A stretch of DNA of 35,663 bases, taken from UHGV virus genome UHGV-0076931. One strand, given 5' to 3'. A program made the position numbers and the translations under genes. The notes below the pieces were generated by a model. That model had not been told where the DNA came from, did not search any database, and saw only the letters and a program-made list of their open reading frames with translations. Positions 24,112-31,494 of this stretch are shown piece by piece (within the stretch, counting starts at the first letter, position 1; every line of letters starts with the position of its first letter). The DNA is from a virus.

Positions 24112-24127
24112 TGGGGCTGTCCTTTTT
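24101..24127. terminator. Bidirectional intrinsic terminator between convergent Q and the 174-aa gene
   Basis: Stem cagcccc / ggggctg with 5-nt loop, flanked by aaaaaa upstream and ttttt downstream; includes the Q stop codon. Confidence 0.7.
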
Positions 24128-24650
24128 ACCAGAGTTGAACCATTTTCTGGGTGCCGTCAGGCTTGAGATTATCAATTTCAGAGAGAACGTAATATTGAAT
24201 GGCTTCACAAACGGTGGTGTATGGTGAATTACCTTCTTTAAGTGGCACGATATTATTATTAACGCGAACCTGTATTTCATCGTTATACATTGCGATCGAA
24301 AGAGGAGTATGCACGAACGCGACTTCGCCAGGTGTGTCGTCAACCACTGTCTCAATGCTGAAAATCAGTTTTCGCTCATCATTGCCGCCCCTTGCTTTGG
24401 GGGTAGCGGCAGGAATCTGAGATAAAGGCATTCTGCGAAACCCTTCAGTTGTTTCCAGTCCGCATGAAACGTAATGCTGGCGATTACCGTCGCTATCCGT
24501 CCATGTCTGTGATGGCAGCTCCAGAGAGATTTCATAAGCATCAACAATTCCCTGGGCAAGGTGTACAAGCGGGGTCAGATCTTCATTGCGGCGAAAACTT
24601 TCCTTTACCTGCTCTCGTTTTTCTCGTAACTGCTTGTAATTAATGACCAT
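24126..24650 (-). CDS. Hypothetical protein (174 aa), accessory gene next to portal
   Basis: Lower GC than flanking phage genes; start placed at ATG 24650 with GGAGG SD (ORF extends to 24689); no recognisable motifs. Confidence 0.6.
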   Translation of the reverse strand: MVINYKQLREKREQVKESFRRNEDLTPLVHLAQGIVDAYEISLELPSQTWTDSDGNRQHYVSCGLETTEGFRRMPLSQIPAATPKARGGNDERKLIFSIETVVDDTPGEVAFVHTPLSIAMYNDEIQVRVNNNIVPLKEGNSPYTTVCEAIQYYVLSEIDNLKPDGTQKMVQLW

Positions 24651-25149
24651 AAAACAGCCTCCATTGATTTCTTTGCTCGTATTTTGCACTTATGAAGTGT
24701 GGTCGGCAAGGTGCCGCATCACTGACGCGCTTCGCTTGTCTGCTGCTTCGCCGAGGCATAAAAAATTTATGCCCCGACTCTCCAGCTCCTGTATCAATCA
24801 GATAATTTCACGACGTCTTCCGACTTATCGCTATCATCGACAGTCAGGCTCTTACGCAATCCCGCCGCGCTGACTGCATGTTCTCGCCGCCTCAGTGCGA
24901 TTTTAATGGCCTTACCTTTCATCCCATCAAATCAGAACCCCTTACGTCTTTTTCACGTTCAGTGTGAGCGATACAGCCATTCTGTTGTGTCGCTGCGACA
25001 TCGTTCAGGGAATGCTATTTACCCCCTGAAACGCGGGCTGTTCCCCCGTCACCTGCGCGCAGAAAAAGCGCGTTTTTTTGTGCACGCACGGATCCTTGAC
25101 GGATCCAACCGCCATGCGGGCCGGAAGGGTAAAAAGTCGTTCAAAAAAA

Positions 25150-25615: not shown

Positions 25616-25930
25616 TCACTCTCCTTTGATGCCAGTGTTTACAACCTGACAAGCCTCTTTGAGCACCCAGTCAATAGCATCTTTCCATGCTCCGGTTTCG
25701 GCTGGCGGATTCTCACGCTTTACCAGTTCATAGAAACGTACTGCTCTAACCAGTCCATCTGACGGTTTTGCCTGTAGTGCAGCCTGAGCTATGCGGTATG
25801 CCTGGAGTATACGGGCGTCGTTGATATCCATTCCGAACGGAATTTCTGATGATTGTGATTCTGCATCTTCAAGCCTGGCAATTTCTTTACGTAAAAAGTA
25901 TTTCAACTCTTGTTTTTGTTTTCTGTTCAT
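25616..25930 (-). CDS. Hypothetical protein (104 aa)
   Basis: ORF with 4-nt overlap to the upstream gene; no recognisable motifs. Confidence 0.55.
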
Positions 25931-26259
25931 GCGTTTTTTTCCTTTTTGTCTGTCACTTCTTTCCTGATAATTTCATTGCACAAATCCACGCACTCATTGC
26001 AGATGTAAACAGACGGTCCGGCAATCACCTTTGTGACTTCGTACTGGGATTTATTGCAGAAACTGCAATAAACCGTCTTCTCGCCTGAAGTCCATGTTTT
26101 GCTGGTTTCGCCAGACATCAGTTGTTTGAGGTCTTTTTCACGACGAAGAACTATCTGGCCACATTCAGCTATTTTTTGGATGTTGACATTTTCTTCTTTC
26201 GCCAGCGCTTCCATCCGCTCAATCAGTCGCTGCGCTTTTTCTCTGTCAATGTGTTGCAT
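25927..26259 (-). CDS. Small protein with ClpX-type C4 zinc-finger domain (110 aa)
   Basis: C-terminal half [34 protein letters not shown] closely resembles the N-terminal zinc-binding domain of ClpX; no AAA+ domain; AAGGGGGA SD. Confidence 0.7.
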
Positions 26260-26322
26260 TGTGTCCCCCTTGTTTATGCTCCCGGGTTAAAGTCATCAGG
26301 GCGGATGCGCCCTGATGTTGTG

Positions 26323-26634
26323 TTATTCGGGAAATAACGCCCGGATATTTCCGGCCATCTGACTGGTTATCTGTGCGGTTGATACTGGCTGTGACGCGGG
26401 GCGTTCTGTCCTGGTTTGTGGCACTGATAACGCCTCATCATCAGCCCATGCAGCCAGTCGGTAAGCCTCTGCCGGATTCATTTTCAGTAGTGCCAGCCCG
26501 GCCAGAAAAGCCACGCGTTGGCCGCTTTTGCGGGCTTCTGGTGTAAGGCTGTCCAGCCAGGCGCATGCTTCGCCTTCGTTCTTGACGGCGGCGGGCTTCA
26601 GATAGAAACTTATCCGTCTGGTTGGTGTTGTCAT
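26323..26634 (-). CDS. parR: ParR-like partition adaptor / repressor
   Basis: Start at ATG 26634 with AAGGAG SD, 4 nt after the parM stop; RISFYLKP...LAGLALL...NIRALFPE pattern as I recall it from R1 ParR. Confidence 0.65.
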   Translation of the reverse strand: MTTPTRRISFYLKPAAVKNEGEACAWLDSLTPEARKSGQRVAFLAGLALLKMNPAEAYRLAAWADDEALSVPQTRTERPASQPVSTAQITSQMAGNIRALFPE

Positions 26635-26638
26635 TGGT

Positions 26639-27598
26639 TTACTCCTTGTCCATTGCGTACAGCCCATTAACCAGAGCAAACTGTGGCACCCCGTCCGCGA
26701 TGAAAGTCGCATTAACTCCGCAGGCTTCGCGGATAGCGGGTGCCACAATCTCCGCCCCTCCACCGACAACCATCGCCCGCCCGTAACCCGAAAAACCCGC
26801 CAGCGCGCGGATCACGCGTTGTTTCAGTGTTTCTTCCTTTTCACGAATAACAGCCATCAGGCTGTCGTAATGCGCGTCATTGTGGATGTGCTGGCGCAGC
26901 CAGGCTTCATCATGGCGATGTTCGATAATGGTATTGGCGATATGGTGACTGGTGCGCATACCGTTAGTGGCCATCACCGACAGTACGGCATCGGCCATCA
27001 GGGAAACGCCTACGTGTGGATCGCAAAACACCTGGCTGATACCTGCCAGTTGCCCCTGAACCTTTGCCACATCCAGCGTGGTTCCGCCCAAATCCACAAT
27101 CAGCAGGGATTCAAACGGACTCATGTCAGCCAGTGCTTTAAAGCCAGCCGGAATGGATTCAGGCATAACCCGCACGTTACGGATAGTGAATGCTTCGCCG
27201 TTCTGGTACTCCACCGGGCGCATAACGTTCGCTTTTTTGCGGTTGATGTTGGCCATGTCCGGCTGTGCGTTTGTGTCGAAATACTCGCTCAGTGGCAGGG
27301 TGACAACCACATCCACCTCCTGTGGCGTGATGCCTGATTTGACCAGCGCGTGATGAATGGCAATTACATTCACATCGCTGTACTGGTATTGCGTGTCGGT
27401 CGTCTGGACAAAGCGATCGCTGACCGGATCAAAACCATAGCGCACGCCATCAAGCATGTAGTTTGCGGGCTGCGTGCCACCGAACGGCGCAGACCATTCC
27501 GACTTGAAGCTGTTCGGGCTGATGGCGTTGCGGCGTTCTCCGTTCTCAGTCCATGCCAGCTTGATGTTGGTGGAGCCGTCATCGATACAAATTTTCAT
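26639..27598 (-). CDS. parM: ParM (StbA) actin-like plasmid segregation ATPase
   Basis: Collinear match to R1 ParM blocks: IDDGSTNIKL, ISPNSFK, YSDVNVIAIHHAL, VMPESIPAGF, DLGGTTLD, GGGAE, LVNGLY. Confidence 0.88.
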   Translation of the reverse strand: MKICIDDGSTNIKLAWTENGERRNAISPNSFKSEWSAPFGGTQPANYMLDGVRYGFDPVSDRFVQTTDTQYQYSDVNVIAIHHALVKSGITPQEVDVVVTLPLSEYFDTNAQPDMANINRKKANVMRPVEYQNGEAFTIRNVRVMPESIPAGFKALADMSPFESLLIVDLGGTTLDVAKVQGQLAGISQVFCDPHVGVSLMADAVLSVMATNGMRTSHHIANTIIEHRHDEAWLRQHIHNDAHYDSLMAVIREKEETLKQRVIRALAGFSGYGRAMVVGGGAEIVAPAIREACGVNATFIADGVPQFALVNGLYAMDKE

Positions 27599-27628
27599 GT
27601 CGCTTTTCCTTATGTTGATTAATTAATC

Positions 27629-27738
27629 GTTTACGGGATTCTGAAATCCCGTTTTTGCCTGTTTTATGCGCGCTTCATATATCGCGGCGCGTTTTTTGCT
27701 CATTTACGGGATTTGTGAATCCCGTTTCTGTCTGTTTT
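27629..27738. repeat. parC-like site: two copies of a ~36-bp element each containing palindrome ACGGGATT-N4-AATCCCGT
   Basis: Copies at 27629-27665 and 27701-27738, directly upstream of parM; the second lies in the 3' end of the A reading frame. Confidence 0.5.
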
Positions 27739-30497
27739 TTGTTTCCACTGGTCAGGCCACCCCGCAGCAGGTCTGCTTTGCGGCGGGCGCGTTCAGTGGT
27801 TTCACTGATTCTCTGTGCGTGCTCTGCGTCGCGGATGGCGCGCAGCATGTCAGAAAGCACGGTAACGGGTGTTTTCATGGTGTTCTGGTCTTGCTGAAGT
27901 GTGGATGCCAGGCGTGCGGCGGCTTCGGGGTCTGATGCCCCCAGCTGTTCCAGATAGCTGGCGACCGGGTTATGGCGGATCTCCGTGCTGCTTACGCCGT
28001 GGTTACGGCTCAGGCGCTGCCAGAGCTGCGTGATCCGGCTGTCCGGGCGGGTATCCGGTTTGCGTACAATTTCAAATCCCTGCGGTGCAATGATGCTGCC
28101 GTCAACGTACAGACTGCCGCCCCGTAACAGGTGCTGCATCTGCTGTTCACCAATATGCAGGCCGAGAGATTCAGCAGACTCCCGCCATTCTTTAGCGAGT
28201 AATTCGTGGTTATCAGGCAAAGGCCGCAGCTGTTTGCGGCTCTGTGTCCAGCTCTGCATTTCATCACTGCTGTTTTTTGCCTGTTTGTCACGAAGCGAAC
28301 GCATCAGCGCCCGGCGTTCGTGCCGTTTCAGTGAGCGCATCCATTCGTTCACTTCAACGCCGTCAGGGAGCTGCGGCCACGGTGCTGGCCGTTCTTCCGG
28401 CTGTTCTGTCCCGTTGTTGTCCGTTTCCTGTACACGGGGACAGTTATTGCCACGAGTCCAAGGGGCGGCAGGGCCGCCCTGAAGGTCAAAACCATTTTCG
28501 TGGGCGTTGTCTTCTGGTTCTGGTTTACGTCTTACCAATTTCCAGTTATCCGGATGCGTGCACACACGGGAGGATTCCCCGATGAGTGGTGACCAGATCC
28601 CGTAAATCTGTACGCTCTGTTCGCCGTAATCGTTCAGCTCATCTGCGAGGTCGTAGGCGGTGCGAATCAGGTAGTCCTTGCGTGGAACAAGCACGCCACC
28701 CTGTTTTTCAATGTAGGTGGCAAAACACCCGGCATCGGCGGCAGCGAGTACCGCATCCATTGCATCATCTTTCAGCCGTTGCGGGCCTTCCGGATTGCGT
28801 GCCATCTGGCTGGCAAGGCGGCGCAGTTCACGCCACACCTGACGGGAGGGGATGCCAAAGAACTGGAACTGACGGACCCGGTGAAGGCGCGCCCAGCCGA
28901 TGGCGCGCTCCACGCTCTCGGCCATTGATTTTCCGGTTTCGTGGTCAACGCGTGGCTTGCCCGTTTTCGGGTCGATGCCATCCACGGCGCGGCTGTCCAG
29001 GTTCTTTCCGATGTAGGTGGCGATGTAGCTGGTTGGTGTGCCTTTTGAGCCGTCGACATACTCCGCCTTAAAACGCGGAGTTATGTCATCGCCCAGCTCG
29101 TGGCGGTCCTCCTGAATGGCAATATCGCAGACGTGGGACACGATGGTTTCAATCTCGTCCGGATGTGCAAAGACCATCATATGCCAGTGCACAGTGCCGT
29201 CATGGTGAGGCTCCACCGTGCGGATGCCATACCAGCGCAGGCCGTCGCGGTTCAGTTTTTTGCGGACCGCCGCAAAAAACGTGTTAACCAGGTAATCGCT
29301 GGAGTCGCGCATGGTGGCCCCGTTCCATTTGGGGTTCGGATGACCGTTCTCCGTTGTTGCGTGGTATTTTGACGGGCAGGTGACGGTCAGAAACACCGCT
29401 CTGTCGCCACGGGCTTCGGCCAGAAGTTCCAGTCCCTTCATGGTGGCCATCATTTCTGCCTTACGGTGAACCGGGTTACTTACTCCCGCGTAATACACCG
29501 TCTCGAGATCAATCGTGAACCCGTCTTCATTTTCCAGCATGAAACTTTTCAGGAAATCGCGTGTTTTCTCGCGCTGTGCGCGAAACTCGCTTAACGCGTC
29601 CTGGCTCAGATAGGGCGATGTTTTTCTGGAAACCAGACAGGCGGCGCGGAGTTGTTCTTCTCTCCACTCGCAACGTAACAGCCACAGTTTGCGTTTCCAC
29701 CATTCCGCACAGGTCAGGCGAAGGATTGCGCCCGGCAGCAGCTCCGTGTCCGGTTCGTTCCTCCGGTCTTTATCTGTTGTCAGTGCGTCATAATGTGGAG
29801 GCATGATGTGCAGGTGTAACGCCATGCGGGCCAGCATCTGATACGCCTTCAGCGTTACATCCATGGTCAGTTCGCCATCGGTCGCGCCAAAGCCATCGCA
29901 GAGTTTTTCGAAGGTGCTGCTGAACATCGCCGCCGTCATGGTGGCCAGCGTCTGTATCTGGTGTTTGTTGAGCTGCGGCAGGTAAAGCAAATCGTCCAGG
30001 CGTTCGCGTCCGGCAAGGGAGCGATAACCCGGTGTCAGCCAGCGTCCGTCAGTGCGATCCAGACGTTCGAATATTTTGCGTAGGGTTCCGCGTGCATAGC
30101 GTTCCGCCTGCCAGCTCTTTTTGCCTTTCCGGCGATCGGCTTCCTGTTTTTTGCGCAGGAAGGAGAGGTGGCGAATAAGCGGATCGCGCAGATAGGACGG
30201 CAGCAGGCGCAGCGAGGCCATGGCTTCATCCACCGCGTCGCGTGCCTGTTTTCTGGCGTCTCCTGCCAGTGTGATGGTTTTGTCCTGTTTTTCCTGTGCG
30301 TCCAGGCTTTTATTAATCAGGTTGCCCAGCGGCGTGGCGGAGAACGCCGCATCAGCCATTTCCTGGCGGCGCTCGTTCTCTACCCGGTAGGCATCCAGCC
30401 AGGAGGAAAGCGCGGATCCAGGAGCGGGGATCCCCGTTCCTTCACGCCCCACTGCGTGGCGCGGTTGTTGCCAGTCCCTGATGTACTCTGCCGTCAT
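27675..30497 (-). CDS. A: Replication initiation endonuclease A (rolling-circle, HUH type)
   Basis: 940 aa; HUH motif in HWHMMVF and paired tyrosines in YIATYIGK as in P2 gpA; longer than P2 A at the C-terminus. Confidence 0.9.
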   Translation of the reverse strand: MTAEYIRDWQQPRHAVGREGTGIPAPGSALSSWLDAYRVENERRQEMADAAFSATPLGNLINKSLDAQEKQDKTITLAGDARKQARDAVDEAMASLRLLPSYLRDPLIRHLSFLRKKQEADRRKGKKSWQAERYARGTLRKIFERLDRTDGRWLTPGYRSLAGRERLDDLLYLPQLNKHQIQTLATMTAAMFSSTFEKLCDGFGATDGELTMDVTLKAYQMLARMALHLHIMPPHYDALTTDKDRRNEPDTELLPGAILRLTCAEWWKRKLWLLRCEWREEQLRAACLVSRKTSPYLSQDALSEFRAQREKTRDFLKSFMLENEDGFTIDLETVYYAGVSNPVHRKAEMMATMKGLELLAEARGDRAVFLTVTCPSKYHATTENGHPNPKWNGATMRDSSDYLVNTFFAAVRKKLNRDGLRWYGIRTVEPHHDGTVHWHMMVFAHPDEIETIVSHVCDIAIQEDRHELGDDITPRFKAEYVDGSKGTPTSYIATYIGKNLDSRAVDGIDPKTGKPRVDHETGKSMAESVERAIGWARLHRVRQFQFFGIPSRQVWRELRRLASQMARNPEGPQRLKDDAMDAVLAAADAGCFATYIEKQGGVLVPRKDYLIRTAYDLADELNDYGEQSVQIYGIWSPLIGESSRVCTHPDNWKLVRRKPEPEDNAHENGFDLQGGPAAPWTRGNNCPRVQETDNNGTEQPEERPAPWPQLPDGVEVNEWMRSLKRHERRALMRSLRDKQAKNSSDEMQSWTQSRKQLRPLPDNHELLAKEWRESAESLGLHIGEQQMQHLLRGGSLYVDGSIIAPQGFEIVRKPDTRPDSRITQLWQRLSRNHGVSSTEIRHNPVASYLEQLGASDPEAAARLASTLQQDQNTMKTPVTVLSDMLRAIRDAEHAQRISETTERARRKADLLRGGLTSGNKKQTETGFTNPVNEQKTRRDI

Positions 30498-30503
30498 AGT
30501 GAT

Positions 30504-30869
30504 TTACTTCGTCATGCCATTCAGGGTGTCACGGCAGACTGTAGCCAGCCGCTGAATTTCCAGCACGGTGTCTTCTGTGTCGGCATGGCGATGTGTGATG
30601 CGGATGCTGTCGGCAATCACATCGACGATTGCAGAGGATGGGCGCTGGTAAATGCCAATAACGGACGGGGTGCCACCTTCAATGCGGTAAAGCCTGTAAT
30701 TTCCCTCGTGGCTGTCAAGCATGTAGCGACCATCAATAACAATCTTTCCGTCAGCGAGCTGCGGTACAGGCAGGGATTTCAAGTACATGTCATAACGATC
30801 ACGCACGCGAGCGGCAAGATCACGTTCTGTGTTGAGCAGGTATTCAAGAAAGTCGTTGGCGAGAATCAT
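30504..30869 (-). CDS. Hypothetical early protein (121 aa) immediately upstream of A
   Basis: ORF in operon position; no recognisable motifs. Confidence 0.55.
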   Translation of the reverse strand: MILANDFLEYLLNTERDLAARVRDRYDMYLKSLPVPQLADGKIVIDGRYMLDSHEGNYRLYRIEGGTPSVIGIYQRPSSAIVDVIADSIRITHRHADTEDTVLEIQRLATVCRDTLNGMTK

Positions 30870-30941
30870 TGCGGCAATCCTCTTGTTACAGATGTGCGAA
30901 GGCCTCCCGCCGCAAGGTGCAGGAAAGGCCCGGAACAGGAG

Positions 30942-31172
30942 TTAATGGAGTTTGTTTTGCTGCTGGATGAGCTGTTGAAGCTCGTGCAGATCATCCGCCA
31001 GATAGCTGAAAACAGAGGCGGAATAAATGTTTGATAGTGCGTGGCTGCGCTCATGCAGCATATTGATGTGCATGATTTGCGCGACGCGTGATGCGCGGGA
31101 AAGTCTGCGGTTGATTTCAGTCTGGATGTGACGACGCTCCGCGATAGCGCGGTGTGGTTTGCGGTTTGCCAT
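30942..31172 (-). CDS. Hypothetical early protein (76 aa)
   Basis: ORF; basic N-terminus; the 205-aa ORF in another frame over the same region is rejected. Confidence 0.45.
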   Translation of the reverse strand: MANRKPHRAIAERRHIQTEINRRLSRASRVAQIMHINMLHERSHALSNIYSASVFSYLADDLHELQQLIQQQNKLH

Positions 31173-31350
31173 GGTGTGGCCCCTTGTGTAGTAAGTTGTG
31201 AAAACTCACCATCCAGAGCTGCGAAACTGTGGGTGGCGAGACGTACGAGGTTCGCAGTACCGGCTACACAAGAACCCGGCCCGACCGAAGTCGGCCCCGT
31301 ACGCCCCGCCATAATTCTGACGCGAAAAAAACGTGGCAATACAGTACGCA

Positions 31351-31372
31351 CAAAAAAACCGCTGGCGCGGTT
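31351..31372 (-). terminator. Intrinsic terminator inside the early operon
   Basis: Stem aaccgc / gcggtt with loop tggc; run of seven T on the minus strand (caaaaaaa on +). Confidence 0.55.
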
Positions 31373-31494
31373 GTGCGCTTGTGTAGTCAGCAGGCTGCGA
31401 AACCCGGCACCCGTTTTGTGAGGTGCAGCGGAAATGTAACCTGACTGATTGCGGCATGGCAAGCGGTTTTTTTGTGTGTGCATGTTCTGGTTTC

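Follow-up and report, generated by a model that had tools for sequence, protein, structure and literature searches.

Introduction

ClpXP controls the turnover of lambda O and MuA, the levels of RpoS, components of the SOS response, FtsZ and several antitoxins, and much of its selectivity goes through a small zinc-binding domain (ZBD) at the N-terminus of ClpX. Lambda O, trigger factor, SspB and RssB all dock on this domain, through a hydrophobic region around F16/I46 (PMC7804408). It is a dimer, and the N-domain is required for the recognition of FtsZ and MuA but not of ssrA tags (PMC5415555); it also recognizes a cryptic degron in the antitoxin MqsA, with which the SspB tail peptide competes (PMC8808172). 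Here we analyzed a gene encoding a ClpX-type ZBD (the ZBD gene, 25927..26259, minus strand) in the virus genome UHGV-0076931, whose whole 35,663-nt stretch is referred to as the window. The initial annotation of this DNA had described a near-canonical ClpX zinc finger without an AAA+ module, had stated that the ClpX ZBD recognizes adaptors and substrates, and had suggested that a free copy could compete for ClpX partners and modulate host ClpXP proteolysis. Our full-text literature searches found no study characterizing a phage standalone ZBD; one paper on motility by transposon-directed insertion-site sequencing (TraDIS) was rejected as a lead because it concerned host clpX and an unrelated phage esterase. 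We find that the ZBD gene is a real, conserved and mobile phage accessory gene whose domain had been correctly identified, and we infer from its conservation that it may interfere with ClpX. In this gene a known recognition domain, detached from its machine and fused to an orphan hairpin, circulates in phage accessory regions.

A ClpX-type zinc-binding domain without a motor

The ZBD gene is a complete open reading frame (ORF) with an ATG start that encodes 110 amino acids. Its product is the equivalent of P88 gp19 (96% amino acid identity), is 100% identical to a protein of phage PhiR44_2 and corresponds to RefSeq WP_001163782, which carries the newer name 'ClpX C4-type zinc finger protein'; at the nucleotide level the gene is 100% identical to CP024223. 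The name 'carboxylate--amine ligase' is a widespread mis-annotation of such proteins in GenBank and older RefSeq records, including P88 gp19 (L002 10195-10527), orf93 of phage D6 (L003 4977-5300) and many nr entries.

The Pfam profile PF06689 (zf-C4_ClpX) matched residues 64-99 with 64.7 bits (E 6.8e-18, profile positions 2-38 of 39), against a curated gathering cut-off of 27 bits. Four cysteines (C65, C68, C87 and C90) are the predicted zinc ligands, in a CxxC-x18-CxxC arrangement with the same spacing as in ClpX; they align with ClpX C14, C17, C36 and C39 and are invariant in 12 of 12 family members. Over the whole domain (residues 62-102; 25954..26076, minus strand), 31 of 41 residues (76%) are identical to residues 11-51 of ClpX from Escherichia coli K-12, and F16, Y34, I46 and I47 of ClpX are all kept. 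When PDB sequences were searched with phmmer, only ClpX chains were found, with the isolated ZBD entries 1OVX and 2DS5-2DS8 as the best matches. The structure of the protein was modelled with AlphaFold2 as a single chain from an alignment of nine family members (mean predicted local distance difference test score, pLDDT, 79), and Foldseek comparison of the modelled ZBD with the crystal structures 2DS5, 2DS6 and 2DS8 gave target-normalized template modelling (TM) scores of 0.88-0.91 and root-mean-square deviations of 0.7-0.8 Å (0.7 Å to 2DS5), so that the treble-clef fold is present by prediction. The profile score, cysteine spacing, sequence identity and predicted fold together bear out the assignment to the ClpX-type C4 zinc fingers. 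Zinc binding and dimerization of the phage domain would be expected from this conservation.

The absence of an AAA+ module was also confirmed. With the NCBIfam ClpX equivalogs the protein scored 51 bits for TIGR00382 (cut-off 371) and 49.5 bits for NF003745 (cut-off 359), and the match covered model positions 3-54 only, about the first 50; with a length of 110 residues, the protein is therefore not a ClpX but a ZBD without the motor. The initial annotation had placed the zinc finger in the C-terminal half of the protein, and its C-terminal position is right, whereas its share is smaller, the ZBD being the C-terminal ~40%. It is followed by a charged C-terminal tail that varies among homologues (residues 103-110 and the stop codon; 25927..25953, minus strand).

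Age of the capture and selection on the domain

The stretch encoding the ZBD shares only 67% nucleotide identity with clpX of K-12; the codon is shared at only 12 of the 31 identical positions, and the synonymous divergence (dS) estimated by the Nei-Gojobori method is saturated. A sensitive blastn search of 5426 complete E. coli genomes with the ZBD gene matched 178 genomes (~3%), and chromosomal clpX was never matched in any of them. A recent pick-up of host clpX was thus rejected on these three grounds, and the capture is therefore old; it has also been maintained. The ratio of nonsynonymous to synonymous divergence (dN/dS) of the ZBD is ~0.15-0.25 across the family; that of the N-terminal hairpin is ~0.15-0.2 where dS is measurable (D6-type versus L014 alleles), and in the linker dN is approximately equal to dS. 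Judged by these ratios, the hairpin and the ZBD are both under purifying selection and functionally constrained, while the linker drifts.

To compare residue conservation, 12 family members were set against 49 bona fide ClpX N-termini. No ClpX-invariant residue of the ZBD is lost in members of the P88 type, which include the protein of the window; the hydrophobic patch F16/I46 is among those kept. Positions 13 and 48 vary in ClpX, and here these members have Y and R, as in E. coli, where other bacteria commonly have H or E. The clade of D6/SSU5-type members changes the ClpX-invariant residues P31, S32, D41 and L42, as well as Y34 to F. The MqsA/SspB pocket of ClpX (L12, L13, H23, K27, I29 and A30) corresponds to T62, V63, Y73, K77, I79 and A80 of the phage protein (Met-inclusive numbering; PMC8808172), with a difference in two of the six residues (L12 to T and H23 to Y).

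Mosaic alleles were also observed. In L014 (5001-5333) a D6/SSU5-type hairpin is combined with a P88-type ZBD, with a ZBD dS of 0.3-0.37 while the hairpin dS is saturated; in addition, D6-type alleles occur in the post-parR slot of P88-like prophages. These observations, which cover L045 and L050 (both ~4001-4333) besides L014, point to recombination within the gene and exchange between prophages and phage-plasmids. In two IMG/VR contigs (L029 and L047) the frame shifts just after the fourth zinc cysteine (…FICDEC) into a downstream gene of 176 amino acids, giving fusion products of 273-282 amino acids without the C-terminal helix of the ZBD, which are probably frameshift or assembly variants.

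A family-specific N-terminal hairpin

In the AlphaFold2 model, a helical hairpin (helices 6-23 and 27-48) is followed by a linker, the ZBD and a C-terminal helix. The predicted hairpin forms a family-specific N-terminal domain (residues 1-48; 26116..26259, minus strand), modelled with pLDDT of 81-91 over residues 11-40 and separated from the ZBD by a flexible, disordered linker of 13 residues (residues 49-61; 26077..26115, minus strand), which has pLDDT below 50 at residues 52-59 and differs in length among homologues. A phmmer search of 1.84 billion representative proteins with residues 1-58 returned 11 matches, and those retrieved were members of the hairpin+ZBD family or truncated or frameshifted copies of them; one match (P0124, 1212 amino acids with six matched stretches), whose sequence was unretrieved, looks spurious and of the coiled-coil type. 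Occurrence of the hairpin in other architectures was rejected accordingly. A single-sequence scan of one genome per species gave no match to the hairpin domain, and in 33 IMG/VR contigs the hairpin was each time fused to the ZBD. Since the retrieved matches to the hairpin are confined to this family, the protein belongs to a dedicated two-domain family rather than being a stray fragment. This family is PHROG 6797 (function unknown), which matched the protein over its full length (E 2.1e-58; residues 1-106 aligned with positions 5-107 of the 107 in the profile).

Several possible relatives of the hairpin were considered and dropped. Its best PDB sequence match (LIN-7 L27, E 0.37) is not significant, and Foldseek searches of PDB and BFVD gave matches to the ZBD part alone and none to the hairpin. 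A common origin with the neighbouring Ead/Ea22-type modules was rejected by hhalign (probability <1%). The conserved L38-R39-R40 was also considered as an internal copy of the SspB-like 'LRVV/LKxh' tail motif, and this idea was dropped, because a charged residue occupies the fourth position and the model shows a helix in this segment. Charged positions conserved in the hairpin are E17, E22/E23, R39/R40 and D43. The hairpin most likely drives self-association and thereby raises avidity, since a two-helix unit is unlikely to be stable alone.

Possible competition for ClpX ligands

Considering that the F16/I46 patch, K27, I29 and A30 are kept, we tentatively propose that the protein may be a diffusible copy of the ClpX docking domain that competes in trans for N-domain ligands, a reading that is possible but could well prove wrong. 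The starting point is the intact ClpX-type ZBD that lacks a motor. From its conservation, the ZBD would bind zinc, dimerize and present the hydrophobic docking surface of host ClpX. It would probably be expressed from the early/partition transcript of the phage, as it is co-directional with gpA-parM-parR and a consensus promoter scan detected no promoter of its own. A soluble protein with the ClpX docking surface is expected to titrate N-domain ligands from ClpX. The ligands for which it would rival the three ZBD dimers of a ClpX hexamer are N-domain degrons (lambda-O-type, MuA, FtsZ, UmuD' and MqsA) and adaptor tails (SspB, RssB, UmuD and trigger factor). The outcome would be a selective dampening or re-routing of N-domain-dependent ClpX and ClpXP activity that leaves pore-recognized (ssrA-like) degradation intact. 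The hairpin could build oligomers with more than one ZBD dimer and so provide avidity, or could give the decoy a second specific contact. The most likely beneficiary would be the phage itself, either by stabilization of one of its own proteins or by blunting of a ClpXP-triggered host response. The earlier suggestion that a free copy could modulate host ClpXP proteolysis is too broad, because a free ZBD would affect N-domain-dependent substrates only, and it leaves out the family-specific hairpin, which is as constrained as the ZBD.

A decoy function would fit the retention of the F16/I46 patch and the long purifying selection after capture, and the behaviour of the gene in genomes fits that of a self-contained accessory gene: a single-gene module in an early accessory setting that is found in three phage lineages. 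Several points weigh against such a role. The affinities of ZBD-ligand peptides are micromolar, and the affinity of an isolated ZBD may be too weak without high expression or avidity. With T for L12 and Y for H23, the ligand specificity of the phage domain may differ from that of the host's. The changes at ClpX-invariant positions in the D6/SSU5-type clade argue against strict mimicry in that clade, and a conserved N-terminal domain has no obvious need in a pure decoy. Finally, anti-phage systems are known to cluster at this locus (PMC9122126), so that it could be the lysogen that benefits.

Alternatively, the protein could be a hijacking adaptor, whose ZBD docks on ClpX (for example, as mixed dimers during assembly) while the hairpin binds a specific host or rival-phage protein and delivers it for unfolding or degradation, or re-targets ClpX. 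We consider this unlikely. In its favour, the hairpin is as constrained as the ZBD, its conserved charges (E17, E22/E23, R39/R40 and D43) look like a binding surface, the ZBD is a dimerization domain in ClpX (PMC5415555; PMC8808172), and the adaptor-like phage protein gp53, which acts on ClpCP, offers a precedent (PMC6873191). However, the exchange of a free ZBD into assembled ClpX N-domain dimers would be a hypothetical step, and there is no known candidate cargo and no co-occurring partner gene. In the D6-type clade, L42 and D41 of the domain-packing helix are changed, which could equally mean that mixed dimers are avoided.

Genomic setting and distribution

A P2-like prophage resembling P88 (Xuanwuvirus, Peduoviridae) makes up the window, and the region is 98% identical to phages P88 and PhiR44_2. 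In P2-like phages the gpA-gpQ interval is a hotspot of variable, often anti-phage cargo, and about one quarter of these phages have a partition system in it (Rousset et al., PMC9122126). Here the ZBD gene comes after parM-parR and belongs to the variable cargo of the gpA-portal hotspot. Related Xuanwuviruses have gpA-parM-parR in common and carry other cargo after parR, and phages 520873, Chuche, P884B11 and Shae_phiSM have parMR without the ZBD gene. More divergent members of the family (43-50% identity) occupy the same gpA-portal slot in Salmonella and E. coli P2-like prophages that lack parMR (L011-L014), and members of ~50% identity lie in the ead/Ea22/EaA-type accessory arrays of phage D6 (P1-like) and SSU5-like phage-plasmids, away from partition genes.

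Overall, the hairpin+ZBD family is confined to Escherichia, Shigella and Salmonella, in P2-like prophages and P1/D6- or SSU5-like phage-plasmids. The hairpin domain was found on 94 plasmids of 84-114 kb, all from these three genera and 92 of them non-mobilizable. Across these contexts the gene downstream is one of three that are unrelated to each other, and the upstream genes vary; the family thus lacks a constant partner, and a two-gene system with a fixed neighbour was rejected. The carriers among E. coli include prophages of sequence type 131 (ST131) and enterotoxigenic E. coli (ETEC) and phage-plasmids carrying CTX-M. In the SSU5-like phage-plasmid pIso00225_02 (L005, 1-1679 and 4823-5146), the ZBD homologue lies ~3 kb from an ISEcp1-blaCTX-M-15 insertion, and the family therefore travels on resistance-bearing phage-plasmids.

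This setting raises the question of whether the protein might be a prophage exclusion factor, which would interfere with the ClpX N-domain in the lysogen and protect it against phages that need N-domain functions (such as Mu-type transpososome remodelling). Such a role is on the whole unlikely. It would suit the anti-phage character of the gpA-gpQ hotspot and the other cargo that related Xuanwuviruses have at the same position; moreover, Table S5A of PMC9122126 includes the arrangement 'StbA + Plasmid_stab_B + zf-C4_ClpX + hypothetical…' with WP_001163782, and that paper reports no test of it. The palindromic repeats upstream of parM, described below, could be a ParR-regulated promoter that is active in the prophage. 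However, the hotspot also has non-defence cargo (partition genes and toxins), the gene points the same way as the early lytic operon, no promoter of its own was detected, and the phage-plasmid copies sit in ea/ead-type early accessory arrays and not in defence islands. In addition, a search of PADLOC-DB v2 gave no match for the ZBD protein or five neighbours at E 0.01 or better, and assignment to a known defence system was rejected for lack of a PADLOC match; the position in the gpA-gpQ hotspot is circumstantial evidence only.

Other standalone ZBDs and alternative uses of the domain

Bare ClpX-type ZBD ORFs of 65-73 amino acids were found in phages of other hosts, namely Pseudomonas phage PP9W2 (gp081, L008 2995-3192), Klebsiella ST846-OXA48phi9.2 (L009 3001-3222) and Pantoea PdC23 (L010 2474-2674). 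They sit in the replication/nin regions of unrelated temperate phages, and two of the three (Klebsiella and Pantoea) carry no annotation; in Klebsiella, 15 nt separate the end of the ORF from the O-like replication gene. Like the protein of the window, these bare ZBDs (PHROG 12435) are standalone ClpX-type C4 domains in an early or replication region; unlike it, they are without the N-terminal hairpin, and their ZBDs are 40-50% identical. They are likely to be independent captures, which suggests that the standalone-ZBD theme is wider than the hairpin+ZBD family. It is conceivable, albeit rather unlikely, that unrelated temperate phages repeatedly captured the ClpX docking domain as a soluble competitor, as a general counter-strategy that selectively blinds the N-domain branch of ClpXP. 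If this were true, the strategy could stabilize antitoxins targeted through the N-domain (such as MqsA) and so defuse toxin-antitoxin abortive infection, and it could also protect phage replication initiators; the enterobacterial two-domain protein would then be an avidity-enhanced version.

It might also be argued that the zinc domain has been re-used outside the context of ClpX, for instance in a phage regulator, as a small treble-clef module that binds nucleic acid or protein. Zinc fingers with this fold are versatile, surface residues invariant in ClpX are changed in the D6-type clade, and PF06689 is also fused to other modules: four proteins (P0049, P0098, P0112 and P0119) represent a 136-amino acid, probably actinobacterial family with an N-terminal ClpX-type ZBD and a C-terminal helix-turn-helix (HTH)-like segment (…GVSWARIGEALGMTRQSAWERF). 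Nevertheless, we consider this re-use improbable for the protein of the window, which has no basic patch and no HTH. The P88 type keeps all ClpX-invariant positions, and the ZBD retains 76% identity to that of the host in the face of saturated synonymous sites; without selection on the ClpX-like surface itself, this would be difficult to account for.

Flanking sequence and neighbouring genes

On the minus strand of the window the order is gpA, parM, parR, a 63-nt spacer containing a DNA hairpin, the ZBD gene and small Ead/Ea22-type genes, followed by the portal gene on the opposite strand. The replication endonuclease gene gpA lies at 27675-30497, parM at 26639-27598 and, directly upstream of the ZBD gene, the parR/StbB-like partition gene at 26323..26634 (Pfam Plasmid_stab_B, as in the P88 annotation), all on the minus strand. 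An accessory role in ParM/ParR partition is very improbable: the ZBD gene is directly downstream of parM-parR on the same strand in both the window and P88, but membership in a ParMR module was rejected by co-occurrence, since each occurs without the other (family members without parMR in L011-L014, others in D6- and SSU5-like phage-plasmids that are not close to partition genes, and many related phages with the same parMR, parR included, but no ZBD gene).

A Shine-Dalgarno-like sequence (AAGGGGGA, 26264..26271, minus strand) was read from the sequence ahead of the ZBD gene, with a GGGGGA run 4 nt upstream of the ATG. The spacer between the parR stop and the ZBD gene contains a perfect hairpin with a 10-bp stem (CATCAGGGCG-GATG-CGCCCTGATG, 26294..26317), and it is close to this hairpin, inside parR or immediately 3' of it, that identity to relatives without the ZBD gene stops. 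The hairpin may represent a cassette boundary or junction or act as an attenuator, and we regard it as a context feature with only a putative assignment to the ZBD gene. At its other end, the stop codon of the ZBD gene overlaps the start of a downstream gene (ATGA) of 104 amino acids with an Ead/Ea22-type C-terminus (25616..25930, minus strand; PHROG 26213/660), which was not kept beside ZBD genes elsewhere when neighbours were compared.

Further upstream, a 42-nt repeat occurs twice (27627-27668 and 27700-27741; 81% identical, 73 nt apart), one copy in the gpA/parM spacer and the other within the 3' end of gpA, and each copy holds a perfect palindrome (ACGGGATT-N4-AATCCCGT). These repeats are candidates for a parC-like ParR operator or centromere; if they are indeed the operator, a promoter located there may drive parM-parR together with the ZBD gene in the prophage state. 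Two gathering-level Rfam matches, the C4 antisense RNA (31229-31316, minus strand, 83 bits) and the Hfq-binding small RNA isrK (31352-31426, minus strand, 64 bits), lie upstream of or overlap an ORF of 205 amino acids (30866-31483). Judging from these matches, the P2-like prophage would contain an antisense control element of the immI-like P1/P7 type. Adjoining the portal gene is an ORF of 187 amino acids (24126-24689, minus strand; PHROG 5091, function unknown) with no P88 counterpart annotated in the matching interval and no match in Pfam, NCBIfam or PADLOC; it is a further piece of uncharacterized hotspot cargo.

Comparison with known systems and significance

If competition for N-domain ligands does take place, the free phage ZBD would be a natural trans-dominant tool for separating N-domain-dependent from pore-dependent functions of ClpX, and copying the protease's own recognition domain would join the known routes by which phages retune host proteolysis. 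Since ~3% of complete E. coli genomes carry the gene, in ST131 and ETEC prophages and CTX-M phage-plasmids among others, an influence on stress responses, antitoxin stability or superinfection, should there be one, would be of consequence for common clinical lineages. If there is no such function, it would be one more small accessory ORF, with a domain name that is already correct.

With the ZBD of E. coli ClpX, the phage protein has in common the C4 treble-clef fold, the zinc ligands and the F16/I46 docking patch. It differs in that its ZBD is not attached to an AAA+ ring, is C-terminal instead of N-terminal and is preceded by an orphan hairpin, that T replaces L12 and Y replaces H23 in the SspB/MqsA pocket, and that it is encoded by phages and phage-plasmids. 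Among phage modulators of AAA+ proteases, T4 PinA and T7 gp4.5 act on Lon, and lambda RexB protects lambda O. To our knowledge, neither these proteins nor gp53 of phage SPO1 is a copy of the protease's own recognition domain. SPO1 gp53 modulates ClpCP (PMC6873191); such modulators resemble the ZBD protein in being small early or accessory proteins that retune host ATP-dependent proteolysis, whereas they work by direct binding to the protease or by adaptor mimicry, unlike the decoy proposed here. The same decoy logic may be seen in mycobacterial ClpC2, a partial homologue of ClpC1 which is reported to bind cyclomarin A, an antibiotic directed at ClpC1, and to give protection from it (PMC10030653). 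Like the phage protein, ClpC2 is encoded apart from the Clp unfoldase of which it is a partial copy; it relates to another Clp ATPase, has another domain fold and is encoded by a chromosomal bacterial gene, and protection by ClpC2 is experimental, whereas the corresponding role of the phage ZBD is one that its conserved docking surface suggests.

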